A stretch of 64,000 nucleotides of DNA, from the NCBI RefSeq assembly GCF_017348835.2, contig NZ_CP071375.1. One strand, written 5' to 3'. The translations under genes and the position numbers were made by a program. The notes under the pieces were generated by a model that was given only the letters and a program-made list of their open reading frames with translations, made no database searches and was not told the DNA's origin. This document shows, in pieces, positions 59,547 through 64,000 of this stretch. This DNA is from Escherichia coli. GTDB lineage: Bacteria; Pseudomonadota; Gammaproteobacteria; Enterobacterales; Enterobacteriaceae. Every line of letters starts with the position of its first letter. Positions within the stretch are counted from its first letter, which is position 1.

Positions 59547-60476
59547 ATGCCGATTCGTGTGCCGGACGAGCTGCCCGCCGTCAATTTCTTGCGTGAAGAA
59601 AACGTCTTTGTGATGACAACTTCTCGTGCGTCTGGTCAGGAAATTCGTCCACTTAAGGTTCTGATCCTTAACCTGATGCCGAAGAAGATTGAAACTGAAA
59701 ATCAATTTCTGCGCCTGCTTTCAAACTCACCTTTGCAGGTCGATATTCAGCTGTTGCGCATCGATTCCCGTGAATCGCGCAACACGCCCGCAGAGCATCT
59801 GAACAACTTCTACTGTAACTTTGAAGATATTCAGGAACAGAACTTTGACGGTCTGATTGTAACCGGTGCGCCGCTGGGCCTGGTGGAGTTTAATGATGTC
59901 GCTTACTGGCCGCAGATCAAACAGGTGCTGGAGTGGTCGAAAGATCACGTCACCTCGACGCTGTTTGTCTGCTGGGCGGTACAGGCCGCGCTCAATATCC
60001 TCTACGGCATTCCTAAGCAAACTCGCACCGACAAACTCTCTGGCGTTTACGAGCATCATATTCTCCATCCTCATGCGCTTCTGACGCGTGGCTTTGATGA
60101 TTCATTCCTGGCACCACATTCGCGCTATGCTGACTTTCCGGCAGCGTTGATTCGTGATTATACCGATCTGGAAATTCTGGCAGAGACAGAAGAAGGAGAT
60201 GCGTATCTGTTTGCCAGCAAAGACAAGCGTATCGCCTTTGTGACGGGGCATCCGGAATACGACGCACATACGCTGGCGCAGGAATATTTCCGCGATGAGG
60301 AAGCCGGACTAAAACCGGATGTACCGTATAACTATTTTCCGCACAACGATCCGCAAAACAAACCGCGAGCGAGCTGGCGTAGTCACGGTAATTTGCTATT
60401 TACCAACTGGCTCAACTATTACGTCTACCAGATCACGCCATACGATCTGCGCCGTATGAATCCAACGCTGGATTAA
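59547..60476 (+). CDS. metA: homoserine O-succinyltransferase (309 aa)
   Basis: [45 protein letters not shown]. Confidence 0.95.
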
Positions 60477-60482
60477 TCCTTA

Positions 60483-60510
60483 CAGCTCCCGAAACTTCAT
60501 TCGGGAGCTG
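60483..60510. terminator. bidirectional terminator hairpin shared by metA and the convergent dehydratase operon
   Basis: CAGCTCCCGAA-ACTTCA-TTCGGGAGCTG, 11-bp stem. Confidence 0.8.
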
Positions 60511-60516
60511 TCTCTG

Positions 60517-61704
60517 TCAGGCCATCCGACAAGCTACTGGTGAATAATCGAAGGCTTTATAGGTCAGAACAAACTCTTTATGCCCCAGCCGCTCTGCGCT
60601 ACAAAGTTTACCGCTGCTGACTTCCTCAATGCAGTGCAACATATCGCTTGCGACATCATCAAGCGATGCACCTTCACTGATAATCCTGCCAGCATTAATA
60701 TCCATATCATCCGCCATATTGGCCCAGGTTTGTGGGTTGTTACAGACTTTAATCACTGGCGCAATTACGGAGCCGATCACTGAACCTCGTCCGGTGGTAA
60801 ACAAAATCATATGACATCCGGTAGCGATAAGTTCCATCGCTTCTGATGAGTCATTGATGTTGGGATAGCCGAAACGCGCTTCGCCGTCGGGAACCACATC
60901 CATCAGATACAGACCAGGGTAAGGGGCATGTTCTGTCGGGAGTAAAACGCCCTGAATAGGGCTATCGCCTGACTTTGTATAGGCACCCAGCGATTTTTCT
61001 TCTTGCGTGGTTAACCCGCCGACGGCGTTACCGTTAGAAAAACTGCCTAAACCCATTGTCGCGTAATAGCGTTTAGCTTTATCCATTGCTGCATCAATCG
61101 CCTCTCTGGCCGCAGGTGTCGCCGCTCGCGCCATCATGTGGCCTTCACAACCAATCAACTCGCCGCTCTCTTCAAAAATGCAGGTCGCGCCTTGTGCGAG
61201 GAGTCGATCAAACGCGCGACCTACGGCAGGATTGCCCGTAATGCCGCTGGTGCCGTCGGAACCGCCGCAAATCGTACCAATAACTAAATCACTGAACGCA
61301 ATCGGGCGAACCGCCACCTGCTTAATTTGCGCCAGCATCTCTGTGACACAAACTTTGCCCCGTTTGATGGTTTCTGTAGTTCCCTTATTTTCCTGGATAA
61401 CCAGCTTATGGCATGGGCGACCACTGGCGATGACATCTTCATAAAGTTTATCGCGATCAAAGTTTTCGCAGCCGAGGGCGATAATCAACACCGCACCAAC
61501 ATTGGGATGGGTCGCCAGTCCTTTTACCAGTCGGTAGCCGTAGTCCGTGGGGTAACAGCCGGAAAAACCAAAATACTGCACGTCTTCATTTGTGAAAGAC
61601 TCAGCGATCGCTTTGGCAACGTGGCTGGCGCATTCCACCATAAAGATGACTTGTACGCTGTTACGTATACCGACTCTGCCATCTTGTCTCATGTAACCCT
61701 GCAT
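60517..61704 (-). CDS. UxaA/GarD-family sugar-acid dehydratase, large catalytic subunit (395 aa)
   Basis: Resembles the C-terminal catalytic domain of altronate/galactarate dehydratases; start codon overlaps the stop of the upstream SAF-domain ORF. Confidence 0.75.
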   Translation of the reverse strand: MQGYMRQDGRVGIRNSVQVIFMVECASHVAKAIAESFTNEDVQYFGFSGCYPTDYGYRLVKGLATHPNVGAVLIIALGCENFDRDKLYEDVIASGRPCHKLVIQENKGTTETIKRGKVCVTEMLAQIKQVAVRPIAFSDLVIGTICGGSDGTSGITGNPAVGRAFDRLLAQGATCIFEESGELIGCEGHMMARAATPAAREAIDAAMDKAKRYYATMGLGSFSNGNAVGGLTTQEEKSLGAYTKSGDSPIQGVLLPTEHAPYPGLYLMDVVPDGEARFGYPNINDSSEAMELIATGCHMILFTTGRGSVIGSVIAPVIKVCNNPQTWANMADDMDINAGRIISEGASLDDVASDMLHCIEEVSSGKLCSAERLGHKEFVLTYKAFDYSPVACRMA

Positions 61705-62024
61705 CAGGCCTCTCCTGCTGGCTCATAGCCCGCATTATCATGGTGGAATACGGCGATATAATCGCTGTTCAGGTTATGGGAATGGATATGCTCGCCAATA
61801 GGGATAGCCTGACTGGCAGAGCCAATGCCTGCGCCATATTTACGAACTTTATCGCCCTGACATAACGTTTCGATTGCCAGCTTATGCCCAAGAGCAACGT
61901 AGCTTTGTGCCACAAATTCACCACCGTCATAGTGGACGCGATCGCCTTGCTGAATATCTTCCAGGGCGACAACGCAGTTATCGAGTTTGTGTAATAGCAG
62001 AGCGCGTTTATTCATGTTCACCAA
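61704..62024 (-). CDS. UxaA/GarD-family dehydratase small subunit, SAF-domain protein (106 aa)
   Basis: 106-aa ORF resembling the N-terminal SAF domain of UxaA-family dehydratases, immediately upstream of and coupled to the large subunit. Confidence 0.65.
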   Translation of the reverse strand: MVNMNKRALLLHKLDNCVVALEDIQQGDRVHYDGGEFVAQSYVALGHKLAIETLCQGDKVRKYGAGIGSASQAIPIGEHIHSHNLNSDYIAVFHHDNAGYEPAGEA

Positions 62025-62071
62025 CTCTCCTGGTTGTGGGGATACAGGCGACCCACAGGCCGCCCGACTGT

Positions 62072-62836
62072 TTAGAAACCGATCAGCGCGCCGCCATCGA
62101 CAATCAGAACCTGACCGCTAACGAAACCGGCAGCATCAGAAGCCAGATAGGTTGCAGCCCAGCCGATATCTTCTGGTTTGCCGAATTTTTTCATCGGTGT
62201 ACGACCAAGAATTTTATTTTTACGCTCATCGTCACCCTCAATGGCTTTGCGCAGCATTGGCGTATCAATCCAGCCCGGAGCGACGCCGTTAACGCGGATC
62301 CCTGCGCCAGAAAGTTCGGTTGCCATGCCATGAATCAGCCCGAGGTAGGCAGACTTCGCGGCAGCATAGCCGGTGACATAAGGTTGACCGAGGAACGATG
62401 TCATTGAGGCGGTAAAAAGCACACAGGCATTGCCATGCTGTTTCATATGAGGGACCAGCGAGCGAGTCAGAGCGAACGCGCCAACGACATGGACATCAAG
62501 AACCGATTCAAAATCAGCGACGCTCATCTCTTCGATCGGTTTTTTACAGTGATTTCCGGCGTTATTGACCAGAATATCGATCTGATTATGCTGGCTCAGA
62601 AGGCCGTCTACCCAACTTTCCGTCTCGTCAGTGTGGGCCACATTGAACTGGCTCCAGGATGCATTTGGCCCCAGCGACTCGGCAGCGTTTTTGGCAGCTT
62701 CGCCATTGAGATCGGCAATGATGACTTTTGCGCCACAGGCGATCATGCATTTAGCCATTGCATAGCCCAGGCCACTGGCGGAACCGGTGATCAGGGCAGT
62801 TTTATTTTCCAGTGAAAAGGGGTTATTCATCGTCAT
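62072..62836 (-). CDS. short-chain dehydrogenase/reductase (gluconate 5-dehydrogenase / KduD-like), 254 aa
   Basis: Rossmann motif TGSASGLGYA, NNAG motif, catalytic YAAAK. Confidence 0.85.
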   Translation of the reverse strand: MTMNNPFSLENKTALITGSASGLGYAMAKCMIACGAKVIIADLNGEAAKNAAESLGPNASWSQFNVAHTDETESWVDGLLSQHNQIDILVNNAGNHCKKPIEEMSVADFESVLDVHVVGAFALTRSLVPHMKQHGNACVLFTASMTSFLGQPYVTGYAAAKSAYLGLIHGMATELSGAGIRVNGVAPGWIDTPMLRKAIEGDDERKNKILGRTPMKKFGKPEDIGWAATYLASDAAGFVSGQVLIVDGGALIGF

Positions 62837-62861
62837 GATTTTTTTCTCGTCAGATAAAGGG

Positions 62862-63875
62862 TTAGAGGTCGATTAAAATTTTGGTGAATGCGCCGGGATC
62901 GGCGGCCCAGTCGCTGAACGCCCGATCGGCAGTATCAATCGGGTAGTGCGCGGAAATAATTAGCTCAATGGGGTAGCACTGCTTTTCCATTAAAGAGAGA
63001 ACTGCTCTGAAATCGGCAACGGTGGCGTTGCGGGAACCACGGATATCCAGCTCTTTCATGAGGAAGCGCGCGCTCTCATAATTCACCGGTTTTTTCGCAT
63101 AGCCGACGTACACCACGCGCCCGCAGAAGGCAGCCAGCTCGACTGCCTGCTCGATGGTTTTATCCAGGCCAATGGCTTCAATCACCACCGCAGGACCGCG
63201 GTCTTCGTTCAGTTTCGCCAGGATCTCAGCAACATTTTCGCGTGCGCTGTTGATATACCTTTCGGCACCACATGCCTTCGCTACCGCCTGCTTACGATCG
63301 TCGATATCAATGGCTACCACGCGACCGCCCATCGCGTTAGCTGCTGCAATAGCGCCAAGACCAATCACGCCGCAGCCCATAACGACGACCCATTCGCCAA
63401 CATTGATTTGCGCCCGGCGCGCAGCGTGAAGACCAACGGCTAATGGTTCGACTAACGCCAGTTCGTCACTGGAAAGGGAATTACAGACAATGACTTTATT
63501 GGCCGGAATAGACAGCAGCGGCACCATACCGCCCTGGCGCTGAACGCCAAGAGTCTGGTTGTTTTTACAGGCATTCGGGCGACCGCTCAGACAGGAACTG
63601 CAATGACCGCATTCGGTACAGGGCAGAACAACAACACGATCGCCTTCCAGAATATGTTTAACCTGGCTGCCTGTTTGCAGGATCTTGCCGCCGATTTCAT
63701 GACCGGGAATGCAAGGATACTGCGTGAGGGGATTTAGCCCGCGCCAGGTATTTAAATCTGAACCGCATAAACCAACTCGTTCAACACGAATTAATACATG
63801 GTCGGCTGGGCAATCAGGTTCGGCGATATCAATAAATCGCGTTACGGAACCTTTATCAATGGCTAACGCTTTCAT
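62862..63875 (-). CDS. Zn-dependent medium-chain dehydrogenase (sorbitol / L-idonate dehydrogenase-like), about 337 aa
   Basis: Catalytic Zn ligands (GLCGSDL...GHEIGG) and structural Zn cysteines (CTECGHCSSC); likely start MKALAIDKG at 63875, ORF-track start 63956 is an extension. Confidence 0.82.
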   Translation of the reverse strand: MKALAIDKGSVTRFIDIAEPDCPADHVLIRVERVGLCGSDLNTWRGLNPLTQYPCIPGHEIGGKILQTGSQVKHILEGDRVVVLPCTECGHCSSCLSGRPNACKNNQTLGVQRQGGMVPLLSIPANKVIVCNSLSSDELALVEPLAVGLHAARRAQINVGEWVVVMGCGVIGLGAIAAANAMGGRVVAIDIDDRKQAVAKACGAERYINSARENVAEILAKLNEDRGPAVVIEAIGLDKTIEQAVELAAFCGRVVYVGYAKKPVNYESARFLMKELDIRGSRNATVADFRAVLSLMEKQCYPIELIISAHYPIDTADRAFSDWAADPGAFTKILIDL

Positions 63876-63888
63876 ATAAAAACCTTTT

Positions 63889-64000
63889 TTAAAGTGAATC
63901 GGATGAAATAACAGAATCGGTATTTTTAATATTTCTCTTAATAGGTTTAACGCCAAAGGCTACCCCAAGAGCGCCGATTACCCCAATGGCACCCGCAAGA
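63889..64000 (-). CDS. 3' end (last 36 codons) of a membrane protein, probably the operon's transporter; 5' end outside the window
   Basis: Minus-strand frame open to the window edge, ending ...LAGAIGVIGALGVAFGVKPIKRNIKNTDSVISSDSL-stop, 14 nt upstream of the dehydrogenase start. Confidence 0.5.
   Translation of the reverse strand, partial: LAGAIGVIGALGVAFGVKPIKRNIKNTDSVISSDSL

Follow-up and report, generated by a model that had tools for sequence, protein, structure and literature searches.

Two overlapping genes in a rare Escherichia coli island probably encode the small and large subunits of one UxaA/GarD-superfamily dehydratase

In a 64,000-nucleotide (nt) stretch of the Escherichia coli contig NZ_CP071375.1 (assembly GCF_017348835.2), hereafter the window, a dehydratase of the UxaA family is encoded by two adjacent minus-strand open reading frames (ORFs), a short one with a SAF domain and a long one with the catalytic part. 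The E. coli enzymes UxaA and GarD (crystal structure 6u7l) contain the same three domains in the same order, but as single polypeptides, and the pair studied here branches outside both of them. The locus therefore raises the question of whether the two ORFs form a genuine two-subunit enzyme or are the remains of a broken gene. Our analysis strongly favors the former: we are confident that the ORFs encode a single heteromeric enzyme of the UxaA/GarD superfamily, the short one its small (SAF/beta-clip) subunit and the long one its large (catalytic) subunit, and that this dehydratase was split in the inter-domain linker long ago. The pair closes a 6.5-kb island inserted between metA and aceB (L001:12118-18566 in the genome of strain PE164), the other genes of which are considered after the pair itself.

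A preliminary description of the locus reported minus-strand ORFs of 106 and 395 amino acids (aa) joined by a TGATG overlap, and the ORF list and the sequence agree with it exactly (Table 1). The A at position 61704 is common to the TGA of the small ORF (61706-61704) and the ATG of the large ORF (61704-61702), giving a 1-nt overlap; the minus strand reads GAG GCC TGA TGC AGG at the junction, and the two ORFs occupy different reading frames. A Shine-Dalgarno sequence, AGGAG, is located 7 nt upstream of the large-ORF ATG, within the end of the small ORF. Three start codons are candidates for the small ORF, namely TTG at 62024 (106 aa), GTG at 62021, and ATG at 62015 (103 aa), the latter being the RefSeq/PGAP choice. 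The ATG, which is preceded at a distance of 10 nt by AGGAGA, is favored, since the orthologous small subunits are 103-105 aa long. Because the large gene starts on the stop codon of the small gene and has its own Shine-Dalgarno sequence inside it, both subunits are probably made from one mRNA by coupled translation.

The Pfam profiles confirm that the SAF domain resides on the separate small ORF (E = 6.8e-07), whereas the large ORF contains GD_AH_second (E = 1.4e-28, profile positions 1-135 of 136) and GD_AH_C (E = 2.7e-78, positions 2-239 of 242). The small subunit is 40% identical to residues 6-83 of UxaA and 32% identical to the SAF part of GarD, and its top sequence match in the PDB is a UxaA fragment comprising residues 1-84 (3k3s, E = 5e-14). 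The large subunit aligns to residues 108-488 of UxaA and to residues 120-500 of GarD (124-504 in another comparison), in each case to the C-terminal end, with 30 and 29% identity, respectively. The summed length of the two subunits (103 + 395 = 498 aa) compares with 495 aa for E. coli UxaA. Alignment of the pair with UxaA and GarD, proposed earlier as a check, covers the full domain set with the cysteines kept, and the inter-domain linker is the sole stretch left uncovered. Judging from these alignments and the structural model described below, no domain is lost in the split, and the break falls in the disordered linker.

Four cysteines conserved in the UxaA/GarD superfamily have been proposed to serve as iron ligands (Cys134, Cys173, Cys208, and Cys276 of C785_RS13685; Watanabe et al., PMC6336799). 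Among 23 aligned large subunits, all have Cys25, Cys50, and Cys79, at least 90% have Cys146, and the cysteines stay conserved once fused homologs are added. These four residues probably correspond to the published ones; the equivalence was judged by motif context (VxC, GC, LGCE, and CGGSD) in the alignment with UxaA and GarD, which does not contain C785_RS13685 itself. When paired small and large subunits were aligned with fused homologs, seven residues of the small subunit (D12, H44, K45, G74, H78, H80, and N81) were found to be invariant or nearly so; the conserved motifs of this subunit are G43-H44-K45 (GHK) and H78-x-H80-N81 (HxHN). Since the SAF piece holds these residues across split and fused forms, they are presumably functional. 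A role of the residues of the pair in the active site is argued solely from conservation.

The AlphaFold2 model of the concatenated small and large chains, built from a 52-row alignment that included fused homologs, has a mean predicted local distance difference test score (pLDDT) of 89.8 and a predicted TM-score (pTM) of 0.80. The pLDDT falls below 50 only at residues 86-99, in the tail of the small subunit before the 103/104 junction, and at the extreme C-terminus; the small subunit is thus predicted to end in a disordered tail of ~20 aa. In a Foldseek comparison, the model matches the GarD crystal structure 6u7l with E = 1.7e-34 and TM-scores of 0.73/0.80 over 515 columns, and the modeled N-domain matches the UxaA fragment 3k3s with a TM-score of 0.93 and a root-mean-square deviation of 1.4. 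The pair is accordingly modeled in the GarD-type fold. The two products probably associate, as suggested by conserved adjacency, coupling, and the conserved residues of the small subunit. They would assemble into the three-domain GarD-type architecture, in which the GHK and HxHN residues of the small subunit would complete the enzyme, and the pair is expected to dehydrate a sugar acid to a 2-keto-3-deoxy acid in a metal-dependent manner, as the superfamily does.

Both ORFs are under purifying selection. With the orthologous operon of the metagenome contig L089 as reference (about 85-90% amino acid identity), the dN/dS ratios are 0.19 for the small subunit and 0.05 for the large one, with the four other island genes ranging between 0.02 and 0.05. 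The 1-nt overlap T(G/A)ATG following a purine-rich stretch is kept in L089 as well as in L090 (metagenome), L091 (Sodalis), and L008 (Escherichia albertii), and in the orthologous pair of Propionivibrio a 21-nt gap takes its place. The recurrence of the same overlap in orthologous operons argues that it is due neither to chance nor to a sequencing error. Indeed, a frameshift artefact of sequencing or assembly that splits a continuous ORF has a negligible probability, given that two complete E. coli chromosomes of pig origin (PE164 and F2_81), assembled independently of each other, carry the region with 100% identity and the same stop/start arrangement is found in orthologs from other genera and metagenomes.

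The breadth of the split form was assessed by searching one genome per species in GTDB with a large-subunit profile, keeping the best 80 loci, and detecting SAF domains around them with a hidden Markov model run over six-frame ORFs. The 103-aa small subunit, used as query in a word-indexed search, gave three matches only, being too short and divergent for that index, and the small subunits were thus surveyed through the large-subunit loci. In 79 of the 80 loci, the large-subunit gene is directly preceded by a SAF ORF on the same strand, and the remaining locus, from an actinomycete metagenome-assembled genome (MAG), contains a fused gene. The present pair has the layout typical of the heteromeric branch, with a SAF gene of ~90-115 aa just ahead of a large-subunit gene of ~390-415 aa. 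A short stop/start overlap is permitted in 56 loci, comprising a possible ATGA-type 4-nt overlap (41 loci), a possible 1-nt overlap (2 loci), and other short overlaps of 8-20 nt (13 loci); the genes are separated by 0-30 nt in 14 loci and by more than 30 nt in 9 loci. The hosts belong to the Alpha-, Beta-, and Gammaproteobacteria, Verrucomicrobia, Planctomycetes, Bacteroidetes, Chloroflexi, Acidobacteria, and Clostridia. At the protein level, 118 of the 120 closest clusters at 90% identity have no SAF domain, nearly all of them being 392-414 aa long, and the best 150 representatives at 50% identity from a library of 1.84 billion proteins include 78 full-length large subunits without SAF, 30 SAF-fused proteins, and 35 fragments. 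In the neighbor-joining tree, the split forms cluster away from UxaA and GarD. The split is therefore an old, stable, and widespread architecture and not a local event of this genome. The preliminary description, which had called for such a survey, missed that a large and old clade, for which KEGG and JGI annotation already have names, is normally encoded in this split form.

These observations bear directly on the possibility of recent fission or decay, in which a once-fused uxaA-like gene was broken in this lineage and one or both pieces are becoming pseudogenes. It would be in keeping with the single chains of the canonical E. coli UxaA and GarD and with the rarity of the island, which only 2 of 5,426 complete E. 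coli genomes carry. On the other hand, the split is common to 79 of 80 species-level relatives in one clade apart from UxaA and GarD, selection against amino acid changes is strong in both ORFs, and a single nonsense mutation would not yield two different frames, a Shine-Dalgarno sequence, and a precise overlap. This explanation is highly improbable and effectively refuted. The earlier preference for a functional coupled pair over a decayed gene is thus upheld by purifying selection, by the complete set of domains and residues, by the position of the split in the linker, and by the conserved gene order.

The split clade also includes a few relatives in which one fused gene encodes 531-560 aa (P0043 at L006:65-1660, P0052, P0125, and L069). 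They carry long Pro/Ala-rich linkers, and the P0043 linker (~50 aa) looks as if sequence that once lay between the two genes, or in their overlap, had become translated, pointing to secondary re-fusion. Fusions of another kind join SAF to enzymes encoded upstream. In Sphingopyxis (L004:6811-8004), the upstream lactonase continues in frame at its C-terminus into SAF, resulting in a 397-aa protein with Amidohydro_2 at residues 18-288 followed by SAF, whose ORF overlaps the large-subunit start by 4 nt. In two Sphingobium species (L030:6736-8001 and L035), SAF is fused to the upstream aldo-keto reductase (AKR). Only these three upstream fusions were kept as genuine, the apparent fusions in the high-GC loci L070, L071, L085, L062, L017, and L020 being arginine-rich nonsense read-through frames. 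The genuine ones may indicate a physical complex of consecutive enzymes. The occurrence of SAF as a free protein or in fusion with either the catalytic part or a neighboring enzyme fits a domain that needs only to be present and docked.

The same tolerance of different partners could also mean that the small protein is not obligate, i.e., that the large protein works alone and the SAF protein is an accessory, scaffold, or regulatory module. We consider this improbable: the small gene is kept beside the large one in 79 of 80 genomes, GHK and HxHN are conserved across split and fused enzymes, and the (2R)-sulfolactate sulfo-lyase SuyAB, a member of the UxaA/GarD superfamily, has been described as heteromeric (PMC6336799).

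The remaining genes of the island comprise a divergent GntR/FCD regulator and, on the opposite strand, genes for an RraA-like protein, an MFS transporter, a Zn-dependent alcohol dehydrogenase (Zn-ADH), and an SDR-family oxidoreductase, followed by those for the small and large subunits. The rest of the MFS gene, the RraA-like gene, and the regulator gene lie beyond the end of the window and were seen in the PE164 locus (L001). All complete E. coli genomes other than the two carriers match the last 79 bases of metA only, and the metA 3' end is ~95% identical to that of most E. coli. The G+C content of the island is 47.9%, compared with 50-57% in the flanking genes. Its rarity and lower G+C content suggest a metabolic island that was probably acquired horizontally. 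In the same PE164 locus, the type III secretion effector gene espL4 (L001:23639-25825) adjoins aceK.

Table 1. Features of the dehydratase locus. Coordinates refer to the window, except where the PE164 locus L001 is named.
Feature	Coordinates	Strand	Description
Large (catalytic) subunit gene	60517..61704	minus	395 aa, ATG start; GD_AH_second and GD_AH_C; RefSeq WP_170942571.1, 'UxaA family hydrolase'
Small subunit gene	61704..62015	minus	103 aa from ATG; SAF/beta-clip domain; RefSeq WP_053883796.1, 'UxaA family hydrolase'
TGATG stop/start overlap	61702..61706	minus	Joins the small and large ORFs
Hairpin, 12-bp perfect	60482..60511	minus	Directly 3' of the large-subunit stop, where the metA and dehydratase genes converge; folding free energy -23.4 kcal/mol, z -4.8
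SDR-family oxidoreductase	62072..62836	minus	Directly upstream in the same operon; every type B relative has it together with the RraA-like and split dehydratase genes
Zn-dependent alcohol dehydrogenase	62862..63875	minus	35% identical to E. coli L-galactonate 5-dehydrogenase LgoD
MFS transporter gene, 3' end	63889..64000	minus	33% identical to GarP, 30% to LgoT
RraA-like gene	L001:16856-17542		Outside the window; top PDB match 5ir2

The hairpin downstream of the large-subunit gene may be a shared bidirectional terminator of metA and the dehydratase genes, and it has no U-tract on the minus strand. Scans of positions 60300-64000 for promoter and terminator consensus sequences gave no more matches than shuffled sequence and were uninformative on operon structure. 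The top PDB match of the RraA-like protein, 5ir2, is an entry with an RraA-like sequence deposited as 'Cellulase'. The protein retains an Arg-Asp pair aligned with the RD of the HMG/CHA aldolase 3noj, in which these are the catalytic arginine and the metal-binding aspartate.

The split architecture itself is already known. The preliminary description held that characterized members of the family are single polypeptides of ~500 aa; this stands for UxaA and GarD but not for SuyAB, and the L-fuconate dehydratase of Paraburkholderia mimosarum (A19U_RS0100650/0100655) has likewise been proposed to be heteromeric (PMC6336799). As in the pair studied here, the small and large subunits of SuyAB match the N- and C-terminal parts of UxaA. 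However, SuyB has no counterparts of the four conserved cysteines (PMC6336799), which the present large subunit retains, and the sulfonate-metabolism context expected for a sulfo-lyase is not found among the island genes. A SuyAB-like sulfo-lyase function was rejected in view of the retained cysteines and the sugar-acid type of gene context.

The proposed L-fuconate dehydratase and its orthologs from clusters with AKR, lactonase, SDR, and FAH genes share the arrangement of a ~100-aa SAF gene upstream of a ~400-aa large gene, often with an ATGA overlap. The large subunits of these clusters are 53-59% identical to the one studied here, have the same cysteines, and belong to the same clade. The gene contexts nonetheless differ: instead of the aldose dehydrogenase, lactonase, and FAH hydrolase of the L-fuconate clusters, the island has the RraA-like protein, a different SDR, and the Zn-ADH. 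No gene for an L-fucose dehydrogenase (AKR), lactonase (Amidohydro_2), 2-keto-3-deoxy-L-fuconate (KDF) 4-dehydrogenase, or FAH hydrolase was found in the island, whereas about 31-37 of the 80 relatives have such genes. Because of this difference in context, the substrate of the present enzyme is probably also different.

Another two-gene form is known from the cluster for L-fucose utilization in Campylobacter jejuni, where Cj0482 (88 aa) and Cj0483 (389 aa) are annotated as the N- and C-terminus of an altronate hydrolase; both are induced by fucose, and conversion of L-fuconate to 2-keto-3-deoxy-L-fuconate has been proposed. Judging by description rather than by direct sequence comparison, they are split at the same domain boundary as the present pair. 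Their operon partners (a DapA-like aldolase, an amidohydrolase, and an aldehyde dehydrogenase) differ from the island genes. In public annotation, close homologs of the large subunit bear the JGI name 'altronate dehydratase large subunit', and the same name is given to K16850 in the KEGG-based table of a published paper. Both are annotation labels for the same split architecture, and no experimental basis was found for altronate as the substrate. The small-subunit partner of K16850 is K16849. Only this operon and the SAF fusions to upstream enzymes elsewhere are mildly new.

The comparison of gene context in the 80 surveyed loci distinguished two main types. Type A (about 31-37 loci) contains genes for an AKR, an Amidohydro_2 lactonase, an SDR, a FAH-family hydrolase, and often a RhaM mutarotase, and corresponds to a non-phosphorylative route of the L-fucose type. 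Type B, which includes the locus studied here, combines the RraA-like protein and an SDR other than that of type A with the split dehydratase; its front ends and transporters vary, the latter belonging to the MFS or TRAP families. The Zn-ADH is encoded in type B loci of E. albertii, Rhizobium, Roseobacter, and a Rhodobacteraceae genome, and a homolog of the uronate isomerase UxaC in those of Propionivibrio, Sphingomonas mali, a Clostridium, and a proteobacterial MAG. The Roseobacter and Rhodobacteraceae loci have an extra AKR and lactonase, and the type B operon of Sodalis (RraA, MFS, SDR, and split dehydratase) has neither Zn-ADH nor UxaC. Thus, UxaC (L002, L075, L081, and L087) and the LgoD-like Zn-ADH (L001, L008, L025, L037, and L050) are alternatives in operons with RraA, SDR, and split dehydratase genes, and they may feed the same keto-uronate intermediate. 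Both L-galactonate 5-dehydrogenase and uronate isomerase can yield D-tagaturonate, and the known L-galactonate route proceeds via LgoD, UxaB, and UxaA (PMC5507952, PMC12632266).

From this gene context, we infer that the split enzyme carries out the dehydration step of an accessory operon for sugar-acid catabolism. The route that we favor, albeit with low confidence, leads from a hexonate via a keto-uronate, an altronate-type acid, and a 2-keto-3-deoxy acid to pyruvate and an aldehyde. The imported hexonate would be oxidized by the LgoD-like Zn-ADH to the keto-uronate, which the SDR would re-reduce to the altronate-type acid; the split enzyme would then dehydrate the latter, and the RraA-like protein, acting as a metal-dependent lyase, would cleave the resulting 2-keto-3-deoxy acid to pyruvate and an aldehyde. 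This route is preferred because of the LgoD-like Zn-ADH, the LgoT/GarP-like MFS transporter, the Arg-Asp pair of the RraA-like protein, and the alternation of Zn-ADH and UxaC, which could converge on D-tagaturonate. A route from galactarate to keto-deoxy-glucarate with the RraA-like protein as a decarboxylating dehydratase was also considered and ranked low, since no aldehyde dehydrogenase is present and related operons contain UxaC homologs.

The main alternative to this pathway, in which both genes are likewise functional, puts dehydration first (Watanabe-type). The enzyme would act on an imported 6-deoxyhexonate, hexonate, or pentonate (of the L-fuconate, L-galactonate, or D-arabinonate type), the SDR would oxidize the 2-keto-3-deoxy product at C4, and the RraA-like protein would replace the FAH-family hydrolase in splitting the 2,4-diketo acid to pyruvate and a hydroxy acid, leaving a peripheral role to the Zn-ADH. 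Beyond the orthologs (72-74% identical), the nearest large subunits (55-59%) indeed sit in clusters with AKR, lactonase, SDR, and FAH, the operons with RraA and the island-type SDR but without FAH fit a non-orthologous replacement, and the Sodalis operon does without the Zn-ADH. The dehydrogenase-hydrolase fate of keto-deoxy acids has moreover been described along with the proposed heteromeric L-fuconate dehydratase (PMC6336799). However, the SDR of the island is only distantly related to that of the fucose clusters (about 110 bits), and the alternation of Zn-ADH and UxaC is better explained by a shared keto-uronate intermediate. Furthermore, we know of no RraA-family enzyme that hydrolyzes a 2,4-diketo acid. 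Dehydration of the imported acid as the first step is rather less likely than not.

Several observations weigh against a heteromeric dehydratase acting on an altronate-type acid. Neither ORF reaches the NCBIfam equivalog TIGR03248 for GarD, the scores being 167.6 bits for the large and 29.5 bits for the small subunit at a cutoff of 730.85. Since the modeled chain was concatenated and the alignment included fused homologs, homology partly dictates how the small subunit is docked, and its placement does not constitute an independent test. The knockout of Cj0483 in C. jejuni was reported as not essential for fucose metabolism. The nearest relatives with an interpretable context are clusters of the L-fucose type and not of the altronate type. 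Finally, the role given to the RraA-like protein is a guess, and one member of the RraA-like family (FlDet) is a keto-deoxy-glucarate dehydratase/decarboxylase. The literature searched contained no report linking RraA with altronate and no RraA-family enzyme assigned to a hexonate pathway.

Taken jointly, the observations allow a broader picture, which we put forward tentatively and hold to be rather unlikely in its full extent. The core of RraA, SDR, and split dehydratase, with interchangeable front ends (Zn-ADH, UxaC, or AKR plus lactonase) and MFS or TRAP transporters, would represent an uncharacterized sugar-acid route that extends from Clostridia to Enterobacterales and forms a rare island in E. 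coli from pigs, with the final C-C cleavage performed by an RraA-family lyase and not by Eda, DapA-like, or FAH enzymes. In a separate proposal, the SAF subunit in its free form would be a docking module, and its upstream fusions would mark a complex of consecutive pathway enzymes.

For the question posed, the finding is correct but ordinary and matters little, the split layout being old, widespread, and already described. Both ORFs are already annotated in RefSeq. Its practical consequence is that a uxaA gene with a broken look should not be taken for a pseudogene, the two-subunit form being a normal one; Cj0482/Cj0483 have been subject to this very confusion. The best remaining question concerns the substrate of the operon with RraA, SDR, and split dehydratase genes, and working it out would add one sugar-acid route and a new activity of the RraA-like family.

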